IMG/VR virus record: IMGVR_UViG_3300029702_000002
Reading direction: 5' to 3' (one strand)
From: a virus
Taxonomy: Duplodnaviria > Heunggongvirae > Uroviricota > Caudoviricetes
DNA: 64,000 nt
The translations under genes and the position numbers were made by a program. Each line of letters opens with the position of its first letter. Position 1 is the first letter of the stretch. The notes below the pieces were generated by a model, which worked only from the letters and a program-made list of their open reading frames with translations, searched no databases and was not told the DNA's origin. This document shows positions 1 to 13,521 of the stretch, in pieces.

Positions 1-908
1 TTACGTGATACCTCCTGGCTTATGCCTAATGCTGGGAAGTAACTACGCGCAGTACGGCGCAAATCTCGGGGTGTAAATGGCTCAAGCTCCATCAGTTCTG
101 GTCGTTCCAGAATACGACGTAATGCCTGGGCTATTGCCACTTTAGACATAGGAAGGTCTTTCCCGATTTTTTTATTCGAAGGCACGAGCCACTGGCTGTC
201 TTTACCATATTCGAACAACTCTTCAATACAAGTGCGCATTAATGAGCTTAAAGGCAGAGAATGCTCACGGGCAGATTTGTTCCTCTTGCCTTGATTCCAA
301 ACCCCACGCTTAAGATTGAACTCACTTTTTTTAGCCCGCAGTACTTCGTCAGGTCGTCTTGCGGATACAAGACATAGCCTGGCCGCCCATTTTGTACCAG
401 CACACACATTGAAGTAGTCCCATATATTCCAGAACACCCATACCTCTGCGTCGGTCAGCTTCCGCTCGCGAGGTGTGGGCTTTGCGCCACCGGCAACTTT
501 GTTAAGTGACATATCGTTTAACGGTGACACGTCTATCATCCCCTGGAAGGCGCACCAGCTAAGGAACTGCTTCATCAGAGAGAAAACGCGGCGGCCCATA
601 ACAATTTTGCCATCCAGTATTAGTGGGTTGACCAGTTGGTTCACCATGAACCTATTAATGTCACTTACTTTTACATCGGCAATGTGCGGCAAAACATGTA
701 TCAAAATACAATGAACAGCGATCTCTGGCCGACGTCTGGTTATCAGCAGAGATAAGCGAGTGAATAACATGAATGCGTCCGAGAATCTCATGTCATTGCT
801 GACCTGGGAGATCATAACGGCCTGCATTTGAGATGCTCTTTCGAGATACTCTATCGCCTCTTTTGAGGTGTTCTCCGCAGCGCGTGCTCTGTCAAAGCTA
901 TTTTTCAT
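1..908 (-). CDS. int: Tyrosine integrase (phage integrase family), partial; C-terminus outside window
   Basis: Minus-strand ORF from ATG at 908 with no stop in window; translation ends ...FTPRDLRRTARSYFPALGISQEV matching integrase box II region, with an upstream ARRPDEV...HSLPLS box I-like region. Confidence 0.6.
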   Translation of the reverse strand, partial: MKNSFDRARAAENTSKEAIEYLERASQMQAVMISQVSNDMRFSDAFMLFTRLSLLITRRRPEIAVHCILIHVLPHIADVKVSDINRFMVNQLVNPLILDGKIVMGRRVFSLMKQFLSWCAFQGMIDVSPLNDMSLNKVAGGAKPTPRERKLTDAEVWVFWNIWDYFNVCAGTKWAARLCLVSARRPDEVLRAKKSEFNLKRGVWNQGKRNKSAREHSLPLSSLMRTCIEELFEYGKDSQWLVPSNKKIGKDLPMSKVAIAQALRRILERPELMELEPFTPRDLRRTARSYFPALGISQEVSR

Positions 909-1010
909 ATGACAATCACCGAGTTACGCCGATGCACTGTATAAGTAAACAGTATATTAGGCATAGATTCTTATAGGATCAAGAGTAAAAGTAACTCATT
1001 TTCAGCAATG

Positions 1011-1041
1011 ATTCCATACATAGTAGGTATGGAATCATTGT
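1011..1041. promoter_or_regulatory. Perfect 12-bp inverted repeat ATGATTCCATAC-N7-GTATGGAATCAT about 100 bp upstream of int start; candidate operator
   Basis: Read directly from sequence; half-site copies recur at 4080-4101 and 5083-5101. Confidence 0.4.
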
Positions 1042-1158
1042 GGGCATTTTTTATAAAATCTGTGATTCTTCTCAGGATAAATTATCTAAACTAAAAATTG
1101 TGTTTTGTGTTGGCATCTGCTTGAATAGACGCATGTTTATTCAGATATGGAATAATCA

Positions 1159-1695
1159 GTGAACAACCAAATTCATTGGGACTACCCATTCTCAGAAGAA
1201 TTCGGCAGTGGGATGGTACACAGACAATTCACTGTGGGAAGCACTATTTATGCCGTTGGGTTTGAACAAATATTGACGATGGATGATTTCACACGTAAGG
1301 GAGTTGATATCCTAAATGTACATCCAACATTCCGGTTTCCTCTGAGTGGTGTATGGGGAGTGATTTTTGACGAAATTGACCCTGTAGAAATGGATTTCAA
1401 AGGATTTCGGCATATCCAACATCAAGGCTTGGCAGGTGGTCAAGTGCTTTTGAATGTTGCAAGTATAATCTTTGACCATTATACTGTTTGTAACGCAGGA
1501 GCTTATGTCTTCTCCGCCGCAGTCGACCATCAGCATTTACGCAGAACTGACTTGGTAGACATTTACTGTAAGATACTGGGTCTAAATGGAAAACGTAAAA
1601 GTAGATTGTTCGCCAATGGTTTTCCTGGATGGGAGGCATACTGTGATGTACCAACAGGAGGAAGAGGCTATGTCGTCACGACTGAAAGTTATTAA
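1159..1695 (+). CDS. Hypothetical protein (178 aa, GTG start)
   Basis: ORF with stop overlapping the next gene start; no recognisable motif. Confidence 0.45.
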   Translation: MNNQIHWDYPFSEEFGSGMVHRQFTVGSTIYAVGFEQILTMDDFTRKGVDILNVHPTFRFPLSGVWGVIFDEIDPVEMDFKGFRHIQHQGLAGGQVLLNVASIIFDHYTVCNAGAYVFSAAVDHQHLRRTDLVDIYCKILGLNGKRKSRLFANGFPGWEAYCDVPTGGRGYVVTTESY

Positions 1696-1897
1696 TTATT
1701 ACCCCACCTCTGCAGAACGTTTGAGCCTTGAAATGGGCGAAAGACTACAGAAAGCTGCTGGTCAGGATTTAAAGAACAAGTTGGGTTCAGGGGAAATTAA
1801 ACTGATTAACGGTAAATATGTAGGTGAAAGCCTGAAAGTTAATAGCACCTCTATGCTAAAAGCGCGGTTGCGTAAAGCGTATATCCCCGCTAAATGA
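1670..1897 (+). CDS. Hypothetical small protein (75 aa)
   Basis: ATG at 1670 preceded by AGGAGGAAGAGG ribosome-binding site; overlaps stop of upstream ORF; followed by hairpin terminator. Confidence 0.45.
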   Translation: MSSRLKVINYYPTSAERLSLEMGERLQKAAGQDLKNKLGSGEIKLINGKYVGESLKVNSTSMLKARLRKAYIPAK

Positions 1898-1926
1898 AAA
1901 GGCCTATATGGGCCTTTTCATTTTTA
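1897..1926. terminator. Bidirectional intrinsic terminator hairpin (AAAAGGCC-TATAT-GGGCCTTTT)
   Basis: GC stem flanked by A-run and T-run between convergent genes. Confidence 0.6.
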
Positions 1927-2169
1927 TAGTGTACTCACCAGCGCCGCAAATTCCGTATACCCCCCAATATGCTCTCCATGTATGAATATCTGAGGTATGG
2001 TATCCACTGGTTTACCAACCAGGTTGCTCAACGTTTCTTTGTTGATCCCCGCAGATGTAATATCTATATACTCATAATCACCGTAGCCATGTCCCTTTAG
2101 TTGCTTCGCCAGCTCGACCGCACGTTTGCAGTATGAGCAGTTATCTCGTCCGTAGATAGTGATCGTCAT
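1924..2169 (-). CDS. Glutaredoxin/NrdH-like redoxin (81 aa)
   Basis: N-terminal CSYC active-site motif (YGRDNCSYCKRA) and glutaredoxin-like length. Confidence 0.7.
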   Translation of the reverse strand: MTITIYGRDNCSYCKRAVELAKQLKGHGYGDYEYIDITSAGINKETLSNLVGKPVDTIPQIFIHGEHIGGYTEFAALVSTL

Positions 2170-2342
2170 AACTTAACAAATACCTTTATAAATATTGATT
2201 CGAACATATCAGACTATACTACAAACAGATTTTTTTGATAAGTATGTAGTAACTTATTGATTGACTAGTAAACAATTGAAGTGATTACGACAATAGATTA
2301 CAGTAAGGATTGCCTTGAAATGTACATTTTATAGAGGTTTTA

Positions 2343-3251
2343 ATGATTGGTAAGTTGTCTGATTCTTTGATTGAAAATAAATACAACGAATTTAGAGAAG
2401 AAATATCTTTACTTTTTGACTATTTAAATCAGATAAATGATACAACAAAGAAAAATATAAAACGTCTTCTTAAAGAAGTGGAGTATGCACAAAATCCAGA
2501 TACTATTATTAATATTAATGAAACTATTAAGATTAAGTGTGGCACAACGTTAGCTCGCCATTTATGTTCAAACCCATATACAGGTTCAACATTAGAGATA
2601 GGTAACAGCGCCATTGATTTAGAAGAAAAGATAAGATTGTGTAATACTTTGAAAAATAAACAATATCAGTGGGTTATTACTGAAGCCTATGAGTTACTGG
2701 AAGACTATATTGAGGCAATATATGTCTATACTGTATGTGTTCGAAATGATTTATGGTCCTCAAGTGATTTTGGTAAGGTTGAAGATGATGAAATTGGGAA
2801 AAGGGAAGTTTATTACAGATTATTAAAAGCAAAAAGTAACCCATCGAAAAAAATAACTAAAATTTTCAGAAATAAAATACCTGGCTTCAAAGAGATAGAA
2901 ACAAACAACAAGATTGGCAAAAACTATCGCTTTAACATCAAGCTAATTGAACTACTAAGACATACAATAGTACACAATAGTGGACGATTCAATGATACAG
3001 AAAAATTTATAAATAAGGTTTTAGATGAATCTGAAATAAACGGTAAGAAAAGAGTTATTGGAGAAAGAGCTGTTAGAAGTTACATTACTAAAGTGCAAGA
3101 AGATGATATTGTGATGCTCTTAGAAAGACCATCTGAAATTTTAGGTTCTTTTGGTGGGTATTTTAACAGAGCAAAATTTTTACTAAGTGATATTTTAGAA
3201 TACTCACTAATCATTAAAGAAGAACTAAAATCATATCTAGGCAATCATTAA
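2343..3251 (+). CDS. AT-rich hypothetical protein with HEPN-like Rx4H motif (LRHTIVHNSG); candidate abortive-infection protein
   Basis: 302-aa ORF with markedly lower GC than neighbours; R-x4-H motif in C-terminal half; own terminator. Confidence 0.5.
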   Translation: MIGKLSDSLIENKYNEFREEISLLFDYLNQINDTTKKNIKRLLKEVEYAQNPDTIININETIKIKCGTTLARHLCSNPYTGSTLEIGNSAIDLEEKIRLCNTLKNKQYQWVITEAYELLEDYIEAIYVYTVCVRNDLWSSSDFGKVEDDEIGKREVYYRLLKAKSNPSKKITKIFRNKIPGFKEIETNNKIGKNYRFNIKLIELLRHTIVHNSGRFNDTEKFINKVLDESEINGKKRVIGERAVRSYITKVQEDDIVMLLERPSEILGSFGGYFNRAKFLLSDILEYSLIIKEELKSYLGNH

Positions 3252-3252
3252 C

Positions 3253-3282
3253 AAAAAAGGGGCCGAAGCCCCTTTGGATTTT
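3253..3282 (+). terminator. Intrinsic terminator (AGGGGC-CGAA-GCCCCT followed by T-run)
   Basis: GC hairpin plus U-tract directly after stop of 2343-3251. Confidence 0.65.
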
Positions 3283-3429
3283 GCGCTTAAAAAAGTGTTG
3301 CTAGGATGTTAGCAAGCTATGGTTAAGAACGTCTGCCGTAATTGTCTATCACAGCGTTGAGCTGTCTGGTTTATGTTAGCGGAGTCTTAATCGAGTTGAT
3401 TAAAAGGCCAAACCGCTCAACGCTGTGTC

Positions 3430-3516
3430 TGGCGGAGAGTAATGGAATCGAACCATCATCGCTTGCGCAATGGGACGGTTTTCAAGACCGCTTGAGCACC
3501 ATGCTCCCTACTCTCC
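3430..3516 (-). tRNA. tRNA-Ser (anticodon UGA), long variable arm, CCA encoded
   Basis: Manual cloverleaf: acceptor GGAGAGT/ACTCTCC, anticodon loop CUUGAAA, T-loop TTCGATT, 3' GCCA. Confidence 0.85.
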
Positions 3517-3729
3517 AATTGTTGTGGTGCCGGGTGCTTCCCGGTGTCCTTTGGCTGGTTATCCACCGTGGACGGAGCCAATAGTCATCACAAAGGATCA
3601 ATATAACCATTTCCCCGCGTGCGCTTAGCCGCATTCACCACAACGAAAAGAGCACTGTATGACGTTTGCACGGACTTACGCTTCAAACAGGGCAGTCTCG
3701 GCGGTTCTCAATGCTCTTTCCTGTTGTGT

Positions 3730-3805
3730 TGGTGCCGGTTAACGGATTCGAACCGCTGACATCCTGCTTACAAGGCAGGTGCTCTACCAACTGAGCTAAA
3801 CCGGC
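3730..3805 (-). tRNA. tRNA-Thr (anticodon UGU), CCA encoded
   Basis: Acceptor GCCGGTT/AACCGGC, D-arm TAGCTCAGTTGGTAGAGC, anticodon loop CUUGUAA, T-loop TTCGAAT. Confidence 0.9.
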
Positions 3806-3807
3806 AT

Positions 3808-3882
3808 TGGCGATGGTGGGTGGATTCGAACCACCGACCAGTTGGTTAACAGCCAACTGCTCTACCGCTGAGCTACACCATC
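3808..3882 (-). tRNA. tRNA-Asn (anticodon GUU), CCA encoded
   Basis: Acceptor GATGGTG/CACCATC, anticodon stem GTTGG/CCAAC with loop CUGUUAA, T-loop TTCGAAT; 2 nt from tRNA-Thr. Confidence 0.85.
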
Positions 3883-4342
3883 AATTCGGCACTGCCAGTA
3901 TTTATTACTCAACAGTGCCAATCGCGACGGTTTAGTTTCTGCCAGGAAACGCACCGCTACTTGCACTTTTCGTTAGTGCCAGACGCTTTCGACTTCGCTC
4001 AATAGTAGAAGGCAAAATCTTTAAGTAGATGATGTTTCTGAGGACTGCACCTACTTTGTAATTTATACAATGTGATGTATGGAATCATTTGTTGTGAAAA
4101 CAGGCACCAATGGCAACAGTGGTTAAACCTACACAACTATCCTGTCTTCACAACGTTGAGGCCACTACTCCGATTGAATGTTTGCCCAACATGTTACATA
4201 TCAACGCTCGCCGGTATCTCTGTGAATAGAACCTTAGAATTGATAAAAATGTAATGGCCTCAACGTTGTGTGCTGGCTAACCATACCAGCCGGGCTACGT
4301 CGCCGCTTTTTAACCCAGTATAAACGACATAATTGAACAAAA

Positions 4343-4457
4343 TGACGTAACAGGATGGGCGGTCATTGGCTAAGAATCCGGGAGTCGTATATGAGTTGAA
4401 AATATACTGACCGCCCATCCTGTTACTTCATCGGAGGGAACATTCATGTTCCCTCCT
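4343..4457. ncRNA. Candidate structured RNA: 23-bp near-perfect inverted repeat (4343-4365 / 4408-4430, 42-nt loop) immediately followed by 10-bp GC hairpin (4434-4457)
   Basis: Arms TGACGTAACAGGATGGGCGGTCA and its complement read directly; no ORF support; next to tRNA cluster. Confidence 0.35.
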
Positions 4458-4661
4458 GCGTTCTGCAATCACACTCGCTCAGTGTGTCCCATTTCGGTAA
4501 CGAGGCTGGAAACTGACCTCGCTGGTGTTTGGCTTATTAGGCTACTGCCAGATAGACTTCTTCGTTTGCACTTGTATTTAAGTTCAAACAGTCGCGTCTC
4601 AACGAAAACAAAGTCATCTTATACATAAAAGATAAGTAAGTAAATACTTATCATTGTGTTT

Positions 4662-4952
4662 TTATTCGGTTGCGACTTTTTTGATCAAGGCCACTCTACG
4701 ACTAGGTGTTCTTGTGATGGTGGCAGTGAATCGTTTCGCTTGGATAGTAATGGTTTCGTTCTCCTTAAGTTGCCCGTAGCGAGTTTCCACCAGGGTGCCA
4801 AGACGCCACAGACCATCATCGATACGTTTATGACTAGCAAATTTAATCAGCAACAGTTTTACGACTAACTGACCTACGTAAAAGGCGAATGCGACTCCGG
4901 CCGCTAAGAAATAGGTGGCCAACCACCAGTCCCAAGAAGTTAAATTGCTCAT
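4662..4952 (-). CDS. Small membrane protein (96 aa, N-terminal hydrophobic segment)
   Basis: ORF start overlaps stop of upstream small ORF (ATGA). Confidence 0.5.
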   Translation of the reverse strand: MSNLTSWDWWLATYFLAAGVAFAFYVGQLVVKLLLIKFASHKRIDDGLWRLGTLVETRYGQLKENETITIQAKRFTATITRTPSRRVALIKKVATE

Positions 4953-5101
4953 TTTCTAACCTTTGTTTCATGAACTACCCGATACACACGCTTTCCGATG
5001 CACAGTGTTTTGGTTTTAAGTTCCTGCTTAATTAAATCACGACAGATGCCGAAGCCGATAAGGAAGCCACCCATAAAAGCTAATGAGATGTATGGAATCA
5101 T
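4949..5101 (-). CDS. Small hydrophobic protein (50 aa, MIPYISLAFMGGFLIGFGIC...)
   Basis: Below ORF-track size cut-off; ATG overlaps upstream stop (ATGA) and own stop overlaps downstream start; AGGAG site 8 nt upstream. Confidence 0.4.
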   Translation of the reverse strand: MIPYISLAFMGGFLIGFGICRDLIKQELKTKTLCIGKRVYRVVHETKVRK

Positions 5102-5313
5102 ATTAACACTCCTGATTCTACTAATTGCTGTAGCAATACTTTCCCTTTATCAGTTAACTGGTAGTTGGCCGAACACCACGTTTCAGAAACGTTTGCAACC
5201 AACCCTAAACGCTCTAACTTAGCTCGCGTTTTAGGCTTCCAGTACTCAGGGAACTCCGGCCACTTACTTATTTCATGAAGCGTTTCTTTCTCCCGTTTAC
5301 TTAATACGATCAT
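5098..5313 (-). CDS. Hypothetical protein (71 aa)
   Basis: Translationally coupled to ligase stop. Confidence 0.5.
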   Translation of the reverse strand: MIVLSKREKETLHEISKWPEFPEYWKPKTRAKLERLGLVANVSETWCSANYQLTDKGKVLLQQLVESGVLI

Positions 5314-6632
5314 TCTTTATCTCCGATTCGATCTTCGGTATCGCGTAAGCAACGCGGCCATTTCAGTCGTGGGTGGCGTAAGCTGCCGTCCGGTGTTTTC
5401 TCGTGACAATGAACCTCAACAATACGACCACGGTACTTCTCTTTGTTGTTCCAGATCTCGTCCAGATATTTATGCTTAATACCGCTCGCACGAACGATGA
5501 CGCCGTTTTCAAGACGAATAACAATTTTTCCAAGTGTGTTGGCAAAACCAGAGTCCGGGTCGCCCGGCTCAAAGTCGATAATTTCACCATCTTCTGAATC
5601 TTCGTCTTTTAACTTCCACCAGCTGCGGGTACGTTTAAACTCGTAAACAGAGTTCGGATCTTTGCCCATCTCCCCTTCTTCGTTATCGTCCAGGCGTTTC
5701 ATGAAGCGTTCGATGAAGTCTTCGTGGCTATGGATGATATAGAACGGATGCAGGTGAATGTCTTGTGTGTAGCCTTCACTGCGATCGTTTTTGAACAACG
5801 CCACCAGCATAGCCAGGCGCTCTTTCAGCTTCATACCTGTCTTTGCATACTCTTTGGATTTAGCCTGTGCTCGCCATTCCGGTAGGAAGAAGTCGAAAAC
5901 ATGATAAATAGCGCCAATTGCCTGCACGTTCTTTTTGCGCAATGCAGATACGGACTGGTTAAATGAACCGGCAGTTCCTTCACCATCGAAGAAGATGTGT
6001 TTGTGGCCTGAAAGTTTGCCTAATTCGAGCATGGCTGGCTTTAGGTGATCGAGAGACGTGATTGGATTACCAGTACGAGAAAGGAAGTTAACCTCTTCCT
6101 CGTCAACAATAACCTCGCAAATTACTCGCAAACCATCGAGCTTAAGACTGCCAATCATCGGCCATTTTGCTTTAGGATTTGGCTTGAAGGGGTATTTGTC
6201 GCCTTTTTCTTTATACGGTGACGCCAGCTGCACCTCGAATTTCGGAATGGGATTTTCAAAAACCTTGTTGCATAGGCTAATCCCAACGCCAGCTTTCGGG
6301 TCTTTTAAGAGGAAACGACGGAACACGTCCTGCCCATCGGCGCACATTGACGCCACGATAGACTCAACAGCTGCTATTGCTGCGTTCCCCGTTAGCTCGC
6401 GAGAGGCCAGCTTATTCAGTACATCAATGGCTTTTTCGTCACTTGGGATGGACTCACTAAGCGGCTCTGCCACTTTGTATTTCTTTACCCCAAAACGGAT
6501 GAAAGGGTTGAGCATCAATGAAACCATGCTTTGTTCAAAGTCATCCATGTTGGCCAATGCCTCTTTTTTTGCATTGGTTCCCATAGCTTTCATTTCGTCC
6601 AGCTTATGCTTAAGTGCGATCAACTTTTTCAT
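5310..6632 (-). CDS. ATP-dependent DNA ligase
   Basis: Adenylation motif I KLDGLR, FDGE motif and WWKLK motif V in 440-aa ORF. Confidence 0.8.
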   Translation of the reverse strand: MKKLIALKHKLDEMKAMGTNAKKEALANMDDFEQSMVSLMLNPFIRFGVKKYKVAEPLSESIPSDEKAIDVLNKLASRELTGNAAIAAVESIVASMCADGQDVFRRFLLKDPKAGVGISLCNKVFENPIPKFEVQLASPYKEKGDKYPFKPNPKAKWPMIGSLKLDGLRVICEVIVDEEEVNFLSRTGNPITSLDHLKPAMLELGKLSGHKHIFFDGEGTAGSFNQSVSALRKKNVQAIGAIYHVFDFFLPEWRAQAKSKEYAKTGMKLKERLAMLVALFKNDRSEGYTQDIHLHPFYIIHSHEDFIERFMKRLDDNEEGEMGKDPNSVYEFKRTRSWWKLKDEDSEDGEIIDFEPGDPDSGFANTLGKIVIRLENGVIVRASGIKHKYLDEIWNNKEKYRGRIVEVHCHEKTPDGSLRHPRLKWPRCLRDTEDRIGDKE

Positions 6633-7943: not shown

Positions 7944-8068
7944 ACCAACTCCTAGCTAACAGATGAAAGTATTCTTACAAAAAACTAAGTATGTATCTAC
8001 TTATCATTTTAGGCGCAATAGTTCCCTATACGAAGATGCCGGGCTTATAGTCTGCCCGGCATTCACCA

Positions 8069-8482
8069 TTAATGAGCTACAGCCTCACTGTTGCACATCT
8101 TTCTGTAGACCTGCTTATAACGCTGTAAGTCATGAGGATCATTAGGTGCCAACGACTTCGATAGGATTTTGTATACCACCCCTTTCGAAAACATGCCCTT
8201 TGGCTTCATTTCGAGTTCAACAACATATGAGTGATAGCCCACGTATGCACCAAAGCCATTTTTGGCGTTTAATTCACCACACACAAAGCCTGTCACACTC
8301 CCATCGTCATGATCAGTCCTGACAAACTTATCTTTCCTAAACATCACCGACGTGGGATCTTTCATGTCATCCGCAATGGCCTGTTGGCCCAGAGTAATAG
8401 CCTTCTCGTCTGTAGGCTTACACCCAACTAATGCAAACAAAGACAATAAAGCACCTGTTAAAATCAGCTTCTTTTTGCTCAT
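8069..8482 (-). CDS. Lipoprotein (137 aa); candidate superinfection-exclusion/lysogenic conversion protein
   Basis: Signal peptide with lipobox LVGC; isolated gene with own hairpin. Confidence 0.6.
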   Translation of the reverse strand: MSKKKLILTGALLSLFALVGCKPTDEKAITLGQQAIADDMKDPTSVMFRKDKFVRTDHDDGSVTGFVCGELNAKNGFGAYVGYHSYVVELEMKPKGMFSKGVVYKILSKSLAPNDPHDLQRYKQVYRKMCNSEAVAH

Positions 8483-8714
8483 TTTGACTTCCCTTTATTT
8501 ATATTTATCGTAGGTATTAGTTAACCAAAACACGAGCAGTGTCACAATAATTCCATAACTTATTATTTCCACTAGTGATTAATACCACATCAACTTTACG
8601 GTTCATAAATTAAATTATCAAAGCTGACAGATTAACTAAATTTAAGTACCCTTTTCGCACACTTGACGCTTGCCGCGTCTAAACTGTTCATCCTATATCA
8701 ACAGAATAAAAAAC

Positions 8715-9860
8715 ATGAAATACATAAAATCTTCTTCGTTGCTGGCATTAACTTTGCTTTTTAGCTCTGGATTCGTTAACGCAGACAATAAACAAACGTT
8801 GATAGAAGCCGCTACCGCAGGTGATACCGCAGCACAAAGTGAGTTAGGGACAAATTATTTGGATGGTGTCAATGGTTTTGATAAGGATGTAGTTGAGGCA
8901 AAGAAGTGGATTGATCTCGCTGCAGAAAAGGGAGATAAAGTAGCATATTATGCACTTGGAGTTATGTACACATTTGGCGAGGGTGTAGATAAAGACCTAA
9001 ATAAAGCTGTTGAGTACTACAAACTTGCGGGGGATGCTCGTGAAGGTAGAGCCTACAACAATCTTGGTGCTATTTATCAAAAGGGGATGCTTGGTAAAGT
9101 AGATCATGCACTCGCCATTAAATACTTCAAACTAGCCTCTGATGTCGGGTATGTTAAAGCAACTTCAGTTCTTGGGGCGTATTACCAATATGGTAAAGGC
9201 GTTAAAAAGAATTATAAAAAGGCTTTTACTTATTACAAAAAGGCGGCAGACCAAGGCAGTTCAGAAGCTATGATAGGATTAGGAATACTATACGATGATG
9301 GGTTAGGCGTTAAACGCAATGATGCAGAAGCAGTTAAGTGGTATAAAAAGGCAGCGGAACTTGGAAACGCCGACGCCATAACCAATCTTGGCATTATGTA
9401 TGAGAATGGGGAAGGTGTAAAAAAGGACTATAAAAAAGCAGCCGACCTTTATCAGACTGCTTGCAATAAAGGAGAAAAAAGAGGCTGTGAATACATTGCT
9501 GAACTGAAAGAAAGCGGAAAATATCGAGTATCTGATTCCAAAGCCAAATCAAAATCAGATGTACAGCGACTTATTGCTAAATCCATTGATAAAGGCGTTA
9601 ACGCAACATTTACCTGGCAGGGTGATGATGCCGTCTTCACCGCTAATGATGGCAAAGTTGACTGCACCTTCTTGAAGGATTTTTCAGAGAAAGGAGGCAA
9701 TCTGGCTACCTCGTTTGTTTGCACCGATAACGTTCAAATCATCCTGAAGCAATTCAGAGATACCAAGAATGCCTACCTCGCGGTAATGACTGACAACTTC
9801 AACACAGAAGTTAAATCATTTTCGGTCAATGTTTACGTGACTAATACTGGTTCAAACTAA
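8715..9860 (+). CDS. Secreted Sel1-repeat (TPR-like) protein
   Basis: Signal peptide MKYIKSSSLLALTLLFSSGFVNA then at least 6 Sel1-type repeats (G-x-x-Y/N-x-x-G-x-G-V-x-K-D/N-x-x-x-A-x-x-W/Y-Y-K-x-A-A); start taken at ATG 8715 inside longer ORF 8670. Confidence 0.7.
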   Translation: MKYIKSSSLLALTLLFSSGFVNADNKQTLIEAATAGDTAAQSELGTNYLDGVNGFDKDVVEAKKWIDLAAEKGDKVAYYALGVMYTFGEGVDKDLNKAVEYYKLAGDAREGRAYNNLGAIYQKGMLGKVDHALAIKYFKLASDVGYVKATSVLGAYYQYGKGVKKNYKKAFTYYKKAADQGSSEAMIGLGILYDDGLGVKRNDAEAVKWYKKAAELGNADAITNLGIMYENGEGVKKDYKKAADLYQTACNKGEKRGCEYIAELKESGKYRVSDSKAKSKSDVQRLIAKSIDKGVNATFTWQGDDAVFTANDGKVDCTFLKDFSEKGGNLATSFVCTDNVQIILKQFRDTKNAYLAVMTDNFNTEVKSFSVNVYVTNTGSN

Positions 9861-11105
9861 TGCTGCTATACCTTTTACCTTGCTTAAAAGTTCAAGCTGT
9901 CGTGAGTAAGGTTTTGCGCAATAGTAGGCTTTGATAATCTGCCCCGGTGTCGCATCGCCGGGGTCGAGTCCTTCCTCGCCCAAACACGCAACTTTGACAT
10001 TAAGACCAATACTTGTGAGTCGCCTGGCTGCGGCCATAGTGTTGCGTATAGCTTGCTTTTCACTATCCCACATCATGATCACATTACGTAATCCACGCGC
10101 CTTGAGCGTCAGGAACGCGCCCAGCTGATCTTCTGCATCCTGAGTGGTGTTGCCAGATAGATGCATCCCGAACGTTCCTATTGGTTCCACGTAATCACGT
10201 AATGTTTCTTCGTCAAAAATAGCTCGTTTGACCCCCATAACATCGAACGCCCCCTCACAGACAACTACCGTCTGTTTGCCGACTGCATTATGGCCGTTGT
10301 AGAGAAACTTACCTGAAGCTGGAAGCTGCATAGGAAAGAGGTAGCGACGTTCTGCTGTACCGGTAATGTCTCGTCCCTGAAATGTCTTCATTACCCCATC
10401 CAGATCGTAAACCGGTATGAGTATTCGCATATCGAATATCTGTCCTTTTACCTGATCTGTATACGGATCTACATAGGCGTGTTTGCCTTCGACGCAGTAT
10501 CGTAGGTCAAAATACTTTGCCATTTCAGGCGATATGTTTCGTTCAACCAGATAGTCTGGAAGACGGCCATCTATAGGCAGTTCGTAATGACGAGGGAGGG
10601 CAACTGGTCCCTCTAACTCGACTGTGCTTGCAAGCACTATCTCTTCTTTCTTTGGTGTCCATCCCTGAGAAAGAAGGGCGTTCTGCACATATTCTTCGAA
10701 CTGTCGCCGTGATTTACCGCTGTAGTGCTTGAGGAACACCAGCTTATTAAATTGTATTTCTTCAGGATGGTCGCCAGCGAAACATTTACCCACACCACTG
10801 GTCAGATTGAAATATACCTTCCAGTTGGAGCTGCCGCATACCGGACACTCCTTGATATTCACTTCACGACCGCGAGCACTCACGCCTCCGCGCCGATAAA
10901 TGATACCTTCAGTGTCCAACCATTGTTCAAAATCTAATTCGGTAATTAGCTCTTTCAGCTCGCTCACGATAATTCCACTTTTAACAGGCAATATTGTGAC
11001 CAACCTAAATGTTGATATAACATAAAGGCTCATGTGTTTTTCTTTTGTGGTTTGGCAAAAGAAAAGTTGTTTCACCAATGAATCAAGCGTGGAGGCGTTC
11101 TCCAC
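9852..11105 (-). CDS. DNA primase (zinc-ribbon + TOPRIM)
   Basis: CPVCGSSNWKVY...C zinc-binding motif and TOPRIM VVVCEGAFDVMG; true start probably internal (GTG near 10967 with GGA site or ATG 11033). Confidence 0.8.
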   Translation of the reverse strand: MENASTLDSLVKQLFFCQTTKEKHMSLYVISTFRLVTILPVKSGIIVSELKELITELDFEQWLDTEGIIYRRGGVSARGREVNIKECPVCGSSNWKVYFNLTSGVGKCFAGDHPEEIQFNKLVFLKHYSGKSRRQFEEYVQNALLSQGWTPKKEEIVLASTVELEGPVALPRHYELPIDGRLPDYLVERNISPEMAKYFDLRYCVEGKHAYVDPYTDQVKGQIFDMRILIPVYDLDGVMKTFQGRDITGTAERRYLFPMQLPASGKFLYNGHNAVGKQTVVVCEGAFDVMGVKRAIFDEETLRDYVEPIGTFGMHLSGNTTQDAEDQLGAFLTLKARGLRNVIMMWDSEKQAIRNTMAAARRLTSIGLNVKVACLGEEGLDPGDATPGQIIKAYYCAKPYSRQLELLSKVKGIAALV

Positions 11106-11114
11106 GCTTATTTT

Positions 11115-12455
11115 TTAGGTAACGTCTAAGATTCGCTCAATGAAGCGCATTTGTTCGAGGTTTTGTTTAACGCGAATGCTGATCCCTCCCTGCTGGTTAC
11201 GTGAACCAGCAAAGTAGAGACGAGCCTCTCCTTTCGCTTCTTCTTCTTCGGTTTTGTTGATCGTTATTACCAGGTCAGCAATACGTACTTTTTCGATGTT
11301 GTCGGCAGCGTGCATCATTGTGGCAACTTCTGACGCGCCACCTTCACGGTTTGTCTGCGATGCCGTGATCCCAGCAACGTTATGCTTGTCATAAAGAGCA
11401 CGTAAATCGGTGTAGATACTACGAATGTTGGCGCGATCATCACGAAGGTCATAACTGGCACGCATCAAATCTGCGTAGTCGACAACAACCATGTCAGGCA
11501 CCATGCCGTTGGCTTTCATGCTGTTAAGCATACGGTCCAGATCTGCCGGTGACATACTTCCTGACGGACGCTCAACCACCCACAAACTACCAATCCCCTT
11601 CGTGGCTCCCAACTCTGCCAACTTACGATGAACCTCATCGCGCCGTTCCACCAGCTTGGACATTTCTGTCTCCGACAATCTTGCATCAAAACGGTCGGAT
11701 AAAATGGTGGTGTGAACCTCCAGCGAGAGATACAGAACATTGTAGCCAGCAAGCGTTGCGTTTATGGAAAACTCACCCATTGCGGTCGATTTGCCGGATT
11801 TAGCGAACCCCATGAAGAGCACCATTTCACGCTTCGCCCAGCCTTTTTGGTACAGCAACCTATCGAGCAGAGGGAGTCCAGTTGTAATGCTGTTTGGCAC
11901 ATACTCCTCTGAAGCCTCATATTCACGCGCTTTCAATCGCTCACTTGCGGAGGTGTAGTAGTCATAGATTCCGGTCGCTTCGTTCGAGCCTATCTGCTGA
12001 ACCTTGGCCATGATTGCCATCGCCCCCTGAAAGTCGCCCTTCTCTTTCAGTTCAGCAGCTTTAATCAGAGCATCATCAAACGCTACACTTTTTGCGAATG
12101 TGGATACCTGGTCAACCATGTACGAGGTATCAGACAATTTTTCTGCAAGGATGCGCTTAAACGCAGCAACAACATCCGGGAAGAGTTCCTCACGGATGGT
12201 CTTATCGCGTTTCGCGCGCTTAAGCATATCCAGAATCGCAGATGAAGAAGGCGCGCTCTTGTACATACGGTAATAGCCCGAAACCATATTAACCAATATG
12301 GCATTGGCCGCATTGGCAAATTGGCTAGGCACAACCAGATCTCCCGCACGAGTAAGAAACTCGTGATCACGACAAAAATATGCCGTCAGTCTGTTCTGGA
12401 AATCTTCATCAAACTCTTCGGACAGCCCGCGTCCTGTATGGCAAAGTTCGGTCAT
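11115..12455 (-). CDS. Replicative DNA helicase (DnaB-like)
   Basis: Walker A GFAKSGKST, Walker B VVVDYADLM, DnaB C-terminal domain architecture. Confidence 0.85.
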   Translation of the reverse strand: MTELCHTGRGLSEEFDEDFQNRLTAYFCRDHEFLTRAGDLVVPSQFANAANAILVNMVSGYYRMYKSAPSSSAILDMLKRAKRDKTIREELFPDVVAAFKRILAEKLSDTSYMVDQVSTFAKSVAFDDALIKAAELKEKGDFQGAMAIMAKVQQIGSNEATGIYDYYTSASERLKAREYEASEEYVPNSITTGLPLLDRLLYQKGWAKREMVLFMGFAKSGKSTAMGEFSINATLAGYNVLYLSLEVHTTILSDRFDARLSETEMSKLVERRDEVHRKLAELGATKGIGSLWVVERPSGSMSPADLDRMLNSMKANGMVPDMVVVDYADLMRASYDLRDDRANIRSIYTDLRALYDKHNVAGITASQTNREGGASEVATMMHAADNIEKVRIADLVITINKTEEEEAKGEARLYFAGSRNQQGGISIRVKQNLEQMRFIERILDVT

Positions 12456-12498
12456 GTGCTTTCCTTTGTTTTTTAAACAAATTGTTTTCTAGTATTAG

Positions 12499-13248
12499 TT
12501 AATTAGATAGGGGATCAATAAACCGCCGTGCTTCTTCCAGTTCTTCTGGAAAGTGGGCGGAAATAAGGCGCTCTGGAACGATTTCCATTAGCCAGATAGC
12601 GGAGAAAATTGCGCGTATGCGCTTGCTGCGAGGTATGGTGCGCAAACGCTCCAGAATCCACTCAAAATAGCTTTCCTGAATCGGGTTGAACTGCATGTCT
12701 CCCATATGCTTAAAGCTAACAAGAGAGTCATCCAGACGGGTTGTTGCGCGTCTGGCTAATTTCTCTTCAAATATCTCAATCAGTTCTGGCTGCCACAAAT
12801 GCTGTGGGCGCGGCAGCTTGTCCCACAGCCGTCGTGCAGCTGCGGAAAGAACGGTGGAGATAAAGTAGTCGTATGAGCAGCAATAGCGATCCGCAAACTG
12901 GCGTGCTTTCCATAGCGACGTTTTGTTGGCAGTCGACAACTCCTGATAAGGCAGGCGTTTTAACCCGGTGGTGAACGGAGCTGTTTCAAAGTGTTCGCGA
13001 CCGTGCGTCAGCATGATATTTGAGTACTGACGTTTGTATGCCTCCGTAAAAAGACAGGTGGCCATGAGAGGATGCATGTCGCGGTAATCAAACCACTTCG
13101 TCTCGAAGAGTTCAGCCTCGTCTTTACAGCGCGACAAACCAATGTTTTCAGCGACCCACTTGTCCATAACAGCGGTATTCCACTCTGTCATGAAGTCGTA
13201 CTGGTCGTTGTCGATGGTATCGAAAAAGATTTGGCTCATGTGGCTCAC
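12499..13248 (-). CDS. Hypothetical protein (249 aa), possibly replication-associated
   Basis: ORF immediately upstream of helicase in same orientation. Confidence 0.55.
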   Translation of the reverse strand: MSHMSQIFFDTIDNDQYDFMTEWNTAVMDKWVAENIGLSRCKDEAELFETKWFDYRDMHPLMATCLFTEAYKRQYSNIMLTHGREHFETAPFTTGLKRLPYQELSTANKTSLWKARQFADRYCCSYDYFISTVLSAAARRLWDKLPRPQHLWQPELIEIFEEKLARRATTRLDDSLVSFKHMGDMQFNPIQESYFEWILERLRTIPRSKRIRAIFSAIWLMEIVPERLISAHFPEELEEARRFIDPLSN

Positions 13249-13355
13249 CTGGTAGGTAGTTACTTACTTATCACAATGAGCGGATGATAGCGACTGGTGG
13301 CAGTTTTTGGAAGTGGAAACGGAAGGGAGTTGTTCTGGTGGTGTCTTTTAAAAGA

Positions 13356-13410
13356 CCTGCTTCCGTATATATTTAATAAGTTACTTATTATTTATATATA
13401 CAGAAGCAGG
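13356..13410. repeat. 55-bp AT-rich near-palindrome, copy 1 (identical to 44652-44706)
   Basis: CCTGCTTCCGTATATATTTAATAAGTTACTTATTATTTATATATACAGAAGCAGG read in both places. Confidence 0.9.
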
Positions 13411-13521
13411 CATAACTTGTCGTCTTAGACGCCCAGAAGCTCTACACTTTGAGCCTGTTAAATTGATTAAAAACTTATGTGTAAAATAGAACGCATTAGT
13501 CAGTAGCAAAGAGATGCAATA

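Follow-up and report, generated by a model that had tools for sequence, protein, structure and literature searches.

Why does a perfect inverted repeat stand just upstream of the integrase gene of a phage, and why does half of it recur alone a few kilobases away? The window (the whole 64,000-nucleotide stretch of viral DNA that was analysed) derives from an SSU5-like phage-plasmid and is 100% identical to the E. coli GMF065 plasmid. The original prediction described a 12-bp inverted repeat at 1011–1041, about 100 bp upstream of int; the repeat exists and begins 97 bp 5' of the int ATG (906–908, minus strand), but it comprises 14+7+14 bp with perfect arms (1006–1040), and the coordinates were a few bases off, the 12-bp version spanning 1008–1038 (Table 1). 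The 12-mer GTATGGAATCAT occurs exactly four times in the 64 kb, as the two arms (1008–1019, minus; 1027–1038, plus) and as two solitary copies (4077–4088 and 5090–5101, both plus); with one mismatch permitted, 0.29 copies are expected by chance, and none of 100 shuffles contained at least four. At the solitary positions, named B and A, the exact 15-mer GATGTATGGAATCAT is found again, and the two stretches share 19 of 20 bases (4069–4088, AATGTGATGTATGGAATCAT; 5082–5101, AATGAGATGTATGGAATCAT), so that the duplicate placed earlier at 5083–5101 was nearly right and the one at 4080–4101 was misplaced. The 108-kb genome of the relative Cyrano has exactly five copies of the 12-mer, all within 9.2 kb and converging on the palindrome; a further solitary copy, C, lies inside the polymerase gene, 5 kb to the left of the window.

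Table 1. Positions of the palindrome, its solitary copies and neighbouring features in the window.
Feature	Position	Strand	Description
Tyrosine recombinase gene int, 5' part	1..908	-	Codons 1–302 of 367; translation and Cyrano annotation
LexA-box-like element	935..954	-	TACTGTTTACTTATACAGTG; CTGT-N8-ACAG at 937–952; read from sequence
Int-proximal arm	1006..1019		Perfect 14-mer CAATGATTCCATAC
Spacer	1020..1026		ATAGTAG, 7 bp, asymmetric; putative crossover (overlap) region
Cargo-proximal arm	1027..1040		Perfect 14-mer GTATGGAATCATTG
Hypervariable cargo	1041..3250		orf178, small ORF, glutaredoxin gene, orf302; flank comparisons
Solitary copy B	4074..4088	-	ATGATTCCATACATC; intergenic, 191 nt upstream of tRNA-Asn (3808–3882)
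Solitary copy A	5087..5101	-	Same 15-mer as B; codons 1–5 (MIPYI) of 50-aa gene 4949–5101

The int gene extends past the start of the window and is full-length in the source plasmid. Its product matches Pfam PF00589 (E=6e-10) and the central domain PF22022, and the arm-binding domain PF13356, present in the next Int relatives (26–34% identity), was not found in it by Pfam. The AF2 model (pLDDT 84.8) has two domains and an all-helical N-terminus, and its top Foldseek match is lambda Int 75–356, a fragment from which the arm-binding domain is missing; Int is 22–28% identical to lambdoid integrases. Int keeps the catalytic Arg, Arg, His and Tyr positions, with R184/R185, K211, R281, R284 and Y316 invariant and H307 nearly so among 52 homologues. 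In E. coli, the int region was on plasmids of ~100–155 kb at all 250 places where it was found, and never on the chromosome (248 of 5,426 complete genomes).

To compare the site between lineages, 227 loci were gathered using the motif, the 96-aa protein or homology to Int, and in 202 of them a palindrome lies 45–230 bp upstream of a tyrosine recombinase gene whose product lacks the arm-binding domain. Every one of the 202 sites has a 7-bp spacer, the sequences of which make up 14 classes, mostly of the form CTWnnAA on one strand; the spacer occurs in either orientation between identical flanks. In 177 related loci the arm core is always TGATTCCATAC, which accompanies Int proteins at least 56% identical (E. 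coli, Klebsiella, Serratia, Yersinia, Chimaeribacter); where Int is 44–52% identical (Pantoea, Rahnella, Erwinia, Hafnia, Xenorhabdus, Providencia), the arms read TGACTCCAGAC, with two positions altered identically in both, and those of Photorhabdus are of a hybrid type. Tests for SSU5 backbone genes in Chimaeribacter, Pantoea, Rahnella and Hafnia loci found none, the genes listed for the Erwinia locus include neither an SSU5 backbone gene nor a homologue of the helix-turn-helix (HTH) gene that neighbours int in phage-plasmids, and non-phage replicons with covarying arms have neither solitary copies nor a neighbouring HTH gene. Int is the only constant neighbour of the palindrome. Because the palindrome travels with int across phage-plasmids and unrelated replicons, and because its arms change symmetrically with the Int lineage around a constant 7-bp spacer and at a sharp mosaic junction, the comparative data favour one of the options raised originally, a binding site for a recombination protein; the palindrome is very probably the adjacent recombinase's own loxP-like DNA site.

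These lineages also bear on an alternative in which the motif serves as operator for a regulator of the phage-plasmid, such as the HTH protein CYRAN_45 ('putative repressor'), whose gene is convergent with int. The palindrome would then be bivalent and A, B and C monovalent, on the model of phage P1, whose C1 repressor reportedly uses asymmetric operators singly or as overlapping inverted pairs. The HTH gene adjoins int in every phage-plasmid lineage examined, and the copies are situated in the replication module. The gene also has an expression level of 10 times background in the lysogen (PMC9928086), and SSU5, described as virulent (PMC5427195), has neither int nor the HTH gene and keeps A, B and C. 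Nevertheless, Chimaeribacter, Pantoea, Rahnella and Hafnia have Int and a covarying palindrome with no HTH homologue found in the 8000–13500 stretch searched around int, and the called genes of Erwinia likewise include none. A promoter scan gave no sigma-70-like promoter over A or B, A coincides with a coupled stop/start within an operon, and C is antisense in a coding region. We therefore regard such a regulator's operator as an unlikely identity for the motif.

Regulation by Int itself is a separate matter. The candidate int promoter (-10 TAATAT at 954–959, -35 TTGATC at 977–982) is followed directly by the SOS (LexA) box, which thus falls between the palindrome and int; this layout is kept in Klebsiella (TACTGTATATAAACACAGTA), Yersinia and Serratia relatives and is absent in the 60% and 46–52% Int lineages. 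E. coli-type lineages have the candidate -35 element 23 bp downstream of the palindrome; where the LexA-controlled promoter is missing, a likely -35 element is overlapped by the int-proximal arm, such that the operator function originally suggested may apply as a second role. Were it the only role, the palindrome would be an autoregulatory Int operator and the true recombination site would be elsewhere or lost. Consistent with this, the arm (TGGAAT/TGGAGT) lies 17 bp upstream of a -10-like TATGCT/TAGAAT in the 60% Int lineage, Chimaeribacter and Pantoea-type loci, and TnpI bound at its resolution site likewise modulates tnpI expression. We nonetheless find an operator-only function quite improbable, as the strict, asymmetric 7-bp spacer with its recurrent CTWnnAA form better fits a crossover region, the palindrome coincides with a sharp mosaic junction, the window lineage has it upstream of the -35 element with repression by the LexA box, and no other conserved inverted repeat was found around int. 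Ciprofloxacin induces Cyrano 39-fold (PMC9928086). LexA control of int is unusual for a housekeeping resolution system, and counts against the resolution function proposed below.

The outer edge of the right arm is a mosaic junction at which a hypervariable cargo segment begins, extending from the palindrome to the tRNA cluster. In megablast comparisons with 247 E. coli plasmids, homology of 98–100% ends at 1039 for most of the matches listed and at 1042–1052 for a few; relative to pSCU-306-2, positions 1–1039 are 100% identical and the sequence beyond is unrelated, with a grx allele only 80.6% identical. At least six unrelated cargo-side flanks occur among 72 loci with near-identical int-side flanks, and the converse was also seen, with a diverged int side and a 93–95% identical cargo side (L003 versus L066). 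The first cargo gene in Cyrano is expressed at 723 times background (PMC9928086). In the one clear exchange of cargo between lineages, the joined sites differ in their spacers (ATAGTAG versus TTAATAG); since unlike spacers are disfavoured by classical strand exchange, some junctions may instead reflect homologous or microhomology recombination beside the conserved site.

The solitary copies had been described as duplicated gene-start fragments, which is inaccurate because only the copy at 5101 starts a real gene. That gene matches phrog_6302 (E=8e-37), and its ATG overlaps the TGA of an upstream 71-aa gene (5098–5313). The copy at 4088 sits in a conserved non-coding leader, where it opens an ORF of 29 codons in the window genome and of 5–6 codons (MIPYIQ or MIPYI, then a stop) in most relatives. 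Comparison of the copies across relatives, as had been suggested, revealed conservation: the 15-mer is constant, with variable immediate flanks. For B, nearly every one of 44 unique contexts has it exactly, as does every IMG/VR match when the search pattern left the motif free, the only core change seen being that of the int-less SSU5. Lineages of E. coli and Salmonella show an exact match at copy A; pKpn-type relatives keep its peptide with a changed DNA motif (TTGATCCCATACATT, TGATTCCATACCTC). The two arms and B all have the sequence GTGATTCC in the Klebsiella pKpn-type lineage, with a shared A-to-G change (three loci), a covariation of arm and B that amounts to a single position in a single lineage. 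Copy C occupies a variable polymerase loop that differs in lineages without C, and its third-codon positions are fixed. SSU5 retains A, B and C, with a single mismatch in one of them, and the int-less locus L183 also keeps all three, so the solitary copies do not strictly need Int. They are very probably under selection at the DNA level, as conserved single arms rather than duplicated gene starts.

This conservation already contradicts the suggestion that the copies are a scar, neutral remnants of gene starts duplicated by modular recombination. Although A and B are nearly identical over 20 bases and each starts ATG ATT CCA TAC, the 15-mer is invariant, with variable bases at its sides, between lineages in which identity of the neighbouring protein is only 61%; B is more conserved than A, the genuine gene start, and C is imposed onto a variable loop. 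For the solitary copies a scar is thus barely credible. An element acting in RNA or translation, with the palindrome forming a terminator or attenuator hairpin and the 15-mer being a conserved mini-ORF start (MIPYI) that acts as leader peptide or processing signal, is very unlikely. The palindrome does resemble a terminator, with a 15-bp stem predicted at -18.4 kcal/mol as RNA and the T-rich GGGCATTTTT after it; B mostly starts a 5–6 codon ORF with a constant end position, and fifth-codon variants (ATC, ATT, ATA) mostly retain Ile, the SSU5 change being synonymous (CCA to CCG). However, only 5 of the 15 stem pairs are G-C and the flank is unconserved, an Rfam search matched no family, the arms covary with the Int lineage rather than with any transcript, C is antisense to the polymerase gene, and pKpn-type A keeps its peptide while the DNA drifts, whereas the non-coding B stays exact.

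No partner arm was found for the solitary copies at any spacing, and without a second arm they cannot be ordinary crossover sites. One-armed crossover sites are reportedly used in the Rci/sfx shufflon, and active sites of this kind could, with the palindrome, invert or excise the tRNA-cargo-int segment in a programmed way. The conserved 12-bp arms with unconserved partners, the arrangement of A and B as direct repeats with C inverted to both, the convergence of every copy on the palindrome and an extra solitary copy in PhiR41_1, lying at the distal border of a 5.9-kb foreign cargo, all fit such a scheme. Yet only 3 bases beside the arm are conserved, not a 7-bp spacer, crossover at C would disrupt the polymerase gene, pairwise identity is unchanged across B, and no rearrangement was seen in ~240 loci, where the order is fixed and A and B are 985–1040 bp apart. 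We consider programmed rearrangement at the solitary copies highly improbable.

The palindrome read as an Int site has several parallels. Like Cre/loxP of P1, it belongs to a plasmid-prophage whose tyrosine recombinase lacks an arm-binding domain, combines two inverted arms of ~13 bp with a short asymmetric spacer beside the gene, and would be expected to serve multimer resolution; Dre/rox and Vika/vox are further simple pairs of a tyrosine recombinase and a site that was mined beside its gene. The differences are a spacer of 7 rather than 8 bp, an Arg (R281) in place of the first active-site His, the SOS box, and the conserved solitary arms kilobases away. No relationship between Int and Cre is detectable by sequence (there is no PDB match), and in Foldseek lambda Int, Xer and Tn1549 Int outrank Cre, whose matches have E>0.07. 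In the TnpI/IRS systems of Tn4430 and Tn5401, a perfectly symmetric inverted core (IR1-IR2 in Tn4430) also lies directly upstream of the recombinase gene, and the recombinase-binding motif is re-used as further single copies. The extra TnpI-binding motifs near each distant end of Tn5401 are, by analogy, the closest precedent for the solitary copies, which here occupy a replication gene cluster rather than transposon ends, with no transposase. The TnpI core motifs are 4 bp apart with a 6-bp cleavage stagger, and the 116-bp IRS contains accessory DR1 and DR2 repeats, whereas no adjacent accessory repeats were found beside the palindrome. An integron platform (IntI, attI, Pc) likewise has a LexA box in the promoter, IntI being under LexA control, with the site just upstream and variable cargo beyond; here, however, no attC-like sites separate the cargo genes, which lie in both orientations, only one occurrence of the motif adjoins the cargo, the site is a perfect palindrome in duplex DNA rather than a folded single-strand substrate, and the Int fold is nearer to lambda Int than to IntI. 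The heterobivalent lambda/P4-type integrases, which act with attP, are the closest relatives of Int in sequence and fold and share PF22022, but Int lacks their arm-binding N-domain, the phage-plasmid has never been seen integrated, and large replicons have the palindrome intact beside int, not divided between attL and attR.

Taken together, we think it reasonably probable that the palindrome is the Int core site for plasmid multimer resolution as well as a mosaic junction, with the solitary 15-mers as extra arms. Two inverted Int-binding arms of 11–14 bp would flank a 7-bp asymmetric overlap, comparable to loxP/Cre or the TnpI/IRS IR1-IR2 core. We infer that an Int dimer binds each site, that two directly repeated copies in a plasmid multimer synapse, and that strand exchange over the spacer restores plasmid monomers. 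Multimer resolution is the most likely job of the site, since the plasmid-prophage has never been found integrated and its Int has no arm-binding domain; the site could also serve cyclisation or concatemer handling following SOS induction. Where an arm overlaps the int promoter, Int binding may also autoregulate int, and the solitary 15-mers most likely provide Int with further binding sites that serve regulation or architecture. As a by-product, recombination between the sites of co-resident relatives would make the cargo-side edge of the arm a mosaic junction.

The inverted repeat upstream of the tyrosine recombinase gene int exists as originally predicted and is slightly larger, with two arms of 14 bp around a 7-bp spacer (14+7+14 bp, 1006–1040). 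This palindrome begins 97 bp from the start codon of int, a minus-strand gene that the window start truncates, leaving codons 1–302. Within 64 kb there are four copies of its 12-mer, where 0.29 would be expected with one mismatch allowed. The outlying occurrences, two single-arm 15-mers here called A and B, are also real, and the coordinates first given for the repeat and its copies are off by 3–11 bases; the description of both as duplicated gene starts holds for A, which opens a genuine 50-aa gene (phrog_6302), whereas B is intergenic. Over positions 1–6000 the window matches phage-plasmids of the SSU5-like group, among them Escherichia phage CMS-2020a (97.5%) and Cyrano/pLF82, and a 110,685-bp plasmid of E. 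coli GMF065 is 100% identical over 1–1100. On the minus strand, the gene order is ligase, 71-aa gene, 50-aa gene, 96-aa gene, ~770 bp of non-coding DNA, tRNA-Asn, tRNA-Thr and tRNA-Ser, beyond which come variable cargo, the palindrome and int. An Rfam search of 900–5400 gave no match at the motif, and a sigma-70 scan of 850–5400 found fewer promoter-like sites than in shuffled sequence, with none falling on the motif. By its score the palindrome is terminator-like, yet it is AT-rich. A literature search with the arm sequences returned only unrelated papers, judged by their titles, and none on this site.

Features of the int region and the adjoining replication module
Feature	Position	Strand	Sequence or remark
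Motif-like copy within int	287–301	coding strand	TTGATTCCAAACC
int start codon (ATG)	906–908	-	
LexA-type box	935–954	-	TACTGTTTACTTATACAGTG; between palindrome and int
Candidate int promoter with the LexA-type box directly downstream	935–982	-	TTGATC-17-TAATAT
Palindrome, int-proximal arm	1006–1019		CAATGATTCCATAC
Palindrome, spacer	1020–1026		ATAGTAG; asymmetric, 7 bp
Palindrome, cargo-proximal arm	1027–1040		GTATGGAATCATTG
Cargo gene orf178	1159–1695		no family match in Pfam, NCBIfam or PHROGs
Cargo gene orf302	2343–3251	+	AT-rich; phrog_35492; terminators on both sides
STnc100 sRNA-like match (Rfam)	3494–3662	-	between tRNA-Ser and tRNA-Thr; 44.1 bits, slightly below the gathering score of 47
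Leader from B to tRNA-Asn	3883–4073		block GTCTGGCACTAACGAAAAGTGCAAGT and hairpins
Solitary copy B	4074–4088	-	GATGTATGGAATCAT; ~190–210 nt upstream of tRNA-Asn
Conserved non-coding stretch	4090–4660		between 96-aa gene and B
Long near-perfect hairpin	4149–4168/4251–4270		also in SSU5
Long near-perfect hairpin	4342–4365/4408–4431		also in SSU5
Solitary copy A	5087–5101	-	GATGTATGGAATCAT; start of 50-aa gene
Solitary copy C	5,023 bp left of window position 1 in the source plasmid	antisense to gene	~250 nt into DNA polymerase III alpha gene

Scanning IMG/VR for the exact pattern yielded 101 contigs with the palindrome, and further loci were collected through the 96-aa protein, Int homology in GTDB genomes and the encoding contigs, for a total of 202 sites in 227 loci. 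All 202 have a 7-bp spacer, which falls into 14 classes, none of them symmetric, most of which read CTWnnAA on one strand. The site always lies upstream of int at a distance of 45–230 bp, in phage-plasmid and non-phage contexts alike. The arm core is TGATTCCATAC when Int shares 56% or more identity with that of the window (E. coli, Klebsiella, Salmonella-type, Yersinia, Kluyvera, Serratia and Chimaeribacter); where Int is 44–52% identical (Pantoea, Rahnella, Erwinia, Hafnia, Xenorhabdus and Providencia), both arms carry TGACTCCAGAC, in which the same two positions are altered symmetrically in both arms. In Photorhabdus and in one group of Chimaeribacter the arms are mixed. The Chimaeribacter, Pantoea, Rahnella and Hafnia loci tested have no other gene in common with the phage-plasmid backbone, no homologue of the HTH gene (CYRAN_45, a ‘putative repressor’ convergent with int) and no solitary copies within 10 kb, and the called genes of the Erwinia locus include neither backbone nor HTH genes. 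On this evidence, Int is the only constant partner of the palindrome.

This pattern bears on the operator reading offered in the original prediction. The P1 C1-like operators are asymmetric mono- and bivalent sites that overlap promoters and are bound by an element-encoded repressor, and the palindrome and solitary copies could be a mono- and bivalent operator set of that kind. The HTH gene does adjoin int, and SSU5 is without it, but the palindrome stays with Int where no HTH homologue was found, and the sigma-70 scan predicted no promoter over A or B. Considered as the conserved partner, the HTH protein was rejected as sole binder, its gene being missing from the non-phage contexts.

Recognition by Int, the other protein-binding reading, agrees better with the anatomy of a simple tyrosine-recombinase core site of the lox/FRT/dif/IRS-core type: the palindrome has inverted elements of ~11–14 bp and an asymmetric 6–8-bp centre, and is linked to, and co-evolves with, the recombinase gene. 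The protein likewise has the catalytic residues and no arm-type DNA-binding domain. Its Pfam matches are Phage_integrase and the integrase central domain only; PF13356, the arm-DNA-binding domain carried by the nearest outgroup (26–34% identity), was not detected. All 52 homologues have R184/R185, K211, R284 and Y316, nearly all have H307, and the whole family has Arg (R281) in place of the first His. In the AlphaFold model (pLDDT 84.8), helical structure starts at residue 7 and the architecture is that of two domains, core-binding and catalytic, with lambda Int 75–356, archaeal Xer, Tn1549 Int, XerH and IntI as its best structural matches. Cre is far weaker (Foldseek E 0.08–0.6, ranking after lambda Int, Xer, Tn1549 Int and IntI), and at E≤0.01 phmmer retrieved nothing for Int from the PDB sequences, hence no Cre match; with no sequence homology detectable by phmmer and only a weak Foldseek match, membership of the Cre protein family was rejected. 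From linkage and anatomy, we consider it highly probable that the palindrome is the core site to which Int binds, and moderately likely that it also serves Int as the site of crossover and multimer resolution.

In PhiR41_1 (L002/L184), a second locus (L164) and one flank cluster, the spacer is found in both orientations between identical flanks, an in-place loop inversion. As proof of Int action these flips are not decisive, since hairpin template-switch inversion would yield the same outcome. Most spacers, reading CTNNNAA or CTNNNAT on one strand, have the pattern of a tRNA anticodon loop, and the Salmonella/Yersinia-type spacer CTATTAA is one base off the tRNA-Asn loop CTGTTAA; this likeness may reflect descent from integrases whose targets are anticodon loops. 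The degenerate motif-like copy within int encodes V-W-N-Q-G, and the same codons in other lineages read TTGATTCCATACATC or CTGATTCCATACATC, a 14/15 match to the motif. Because it codes for the invariant W-N-Q-G, this copy is probably a coincidence of coding.

The int region was found at 250 places in 248 of 5,426 complete E. coli genomes, all of them on plasmids of ~100–155 kb, and the palindrome is intact on contigs of 0.2–0.7 Mb. The places returned by a search for integrated forms on very long contigs were all on contigs of 12–106 kb. An integrative attP of the lambda/P4 type was rejected on the missing PF13356, the 0 of 250 E. coli places that are chromosomal, and the unsplit palindrome. 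A simple Int on an element that never integrates, with a symmetric-arm site beside its gene, matches the layout of a multimer-resolution system. Cre/loxP has a multimer-resolution role in P1 (PMC7969092), and TnpI/IRS in Tn4430 is another example. As in TnpI/IRS, the motif is present in Cyrano as an inverted core pair with extra single copies, which would be putative Int arms. In Tn5401, the resolution site upstream of tnpI contains a TnpI-binding motif that recurs close to both distant ends of the transposon, and expression is regulated by TnpI binding. The distances of the solitary copies (1–6 kb) resemble those of the Tn5401 end copies, unlike the adjacent DR1 and DR2 of TnpI/IRS; among documented systems, Tn5401 is the closest precedent for them.

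On its other side the palindrome adjoins hypervariable cargo. Most of the E. coli relatives listed show 96–100% identity as far as position 1039 (1042–1052 in a few), where the match ends. In pSCU-306-2, 1–1039 is 100% identical and the sequence beyond is unrelated; its glutaredoxin allele is 80.6% identical. The 72 loci with a near-identical int-side flank have at least six unrelated cargo-side flanks, and of 15,051 locus pairs 1,602 share the int side and have unrelated cargo, against two with the reverse. In these alignments the palindrome marks the boundary of a cargo hotspot. In one of the two reverse pairs (L003 and L066), identity rises from ~75% to ~95% across the palindrome and the spacers differ, so not every junction need be the product of classical strand exchange. 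The extra solitary copy of PhiR41_1 sits at the edge of its cargo, an IS3-associated fimbrial operon; its flanks gave no matches. A CobS-like AAA_5 gene of 773 aa in a Xenorhabdus phage-plasmid (L216, 14481–16802) has a LAGLIDADG_3 hit, which suggests an intein or homing-endonuclease insertion.

The promoter and LexA-box arrangement at int is kept in Klebsiella, Yersinia and Serratia relatives and is not found in more distant Int lineages. Conservation of the predicted box implies SOS control of the recombinase. Ciprofloxacin induces Cyrano 39-fold, and the first cargo gene past the Cyrano palindrome is expressed in the lysogen at 723 times background (PMC9928086). In lineages without the LexA box, Int autoregulation is plausible because the int-proximal arm overlaps the likely -35 element. 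In SSU5-like elements the LexA box and the placement of the site resemble an integron. An integron, in which each cassette of an array ends in an attC site, was nonetheless rejected, as the cargo, checked for the motif, holds no further copies of it, though other inverted repeats do occur there (e.g. 1892–1923); IntI (2a3v) also ranks under lambda Int in the fold search, whereas an integron has an IntI-type integrase.

Cyrano (108,379 bp) contains exactly five copies of the 12-mer with one mismatch allowed, all inside 9.2 kb, two in the core and three solitary. In every lineage possessing them, the copies read as ATGATTCCATAC all face the palindrome; B as it stands reads ATGATTCCATACATC. An iteron, parS or KOPS-like genome-wide signal was rejected on this small number and its clustering, with no copy near repA or parAB. 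The suggestion that the repeats are scars of modular recombination does not suit the solitary copies, as the 15-mer is unchanged in both A and B even in lineages whose neighbouring 96-aa protein has no more than 61% identity. A search anchored on the flanks of B, with no constraint on the motif itself, found the exact 15-mer in every IMG/VR copy, while the three preceding bases and one following base vary; in pairwise comparison, sequence identity is unchanged across B. The polymerase segment holding C is a variable loop, KES[MG][RG]CMESL with C and KESGEEVPVYK or KEADEELLPIV without it, and the third codon positions of TGT, GAA and TCA in C are fixed across lineages. At three Klebsiella pKpn-type loci both arms and B have GTGATTCC, not ATGATTCC, and A retains its peptide only (TTG ATC CCA TAC ATT) or drifts; thus B goes with the arms, and A is for the most part a feature of coding. 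In elements of the pKpn type, the polymerase gene is split in two.

No partner arm for A, B or C was found at spacings of 7–8 bp, nor across lineages, which makes them true half-sites. The Rci/sfx sites of shufflons have one conserved arm and a conserved 7-bp spacer, and are inverted, bounding invertible segments. A shufflon was rejected, since the solitary copies conserve the arm and only 3 bases, and no rearranged, inverted or deleted arrangement was seen in ~240 loci. SSU5 and one further locus (L183) keep A, B and C where int is absent, so the solitary copies are not strictly Int-dependent; the only core substitution seen in B is that of SSU5. In SSU5 (L106, 12597–12762) tRNA-Asn is followed directly by cobT, without int, the HTH gene, the palindrome or any cargo, a gene content that fits its description as a virulent phage (PMC5427195). 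Going by their conservation, the solitary copies are selected single arms of the recombinase site; that Int binds these 15-mers seems to us about evenly balanced.

The block and hairpins of the leader between B and tRNA-Asn are conserved in all lineages, pKpn-type Klebsiella included. The conserved non-coding stretch on the other side of B, with its two hairpins, matched no Rfam family and may be a structured RNA. In two contigs of the same IMG genome (L022 and L168), a Tn3-family-like inverted-repeat end, GGGGAGCCCGCAGAATTCGG, is inserted ~20 nt downstream of B, and the assembly breaks at this insertion.

In conclusion, the recombinase and its site form a new family of a known kind, unusual in its dispersed arms. 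A bolder and rather improbable extension is that SSU5-type phage-plasmids carry an SOS-switched, integron-like platform, in which the recombinase and its symmetric site would anchor and exchange hypervariable moron and defence cargo. The same recombinase would read three single arms in the replication module, one of them in DNA polymerase coding sequence, and a multi-site complex of palindrome, B and C (four arms) would couple DNA damage to replication, tRNA expression or the plasmid-to-lytic switch. The compact recombinase/site pair is unrelated to Cre, and the two arm specificities (TGATTCCATAC, TGACTCCAGAC) and numerous 7-bp spacers that occur naturally mean that it may serve as an orthogonal genome-engineering tool. 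Conserved single arms kilobases away, one imposed on a polymerase coding loop, would be an unusual, testable reuse of a putative recombinase motif outside the crossover site. SSU5-like phage-plasmids are common and bear resistance, toxin and defence cargo; the site of their recombinase, once identified, would explain both the monomer state of the plasmid and cargo mosaicism at exactly one position.
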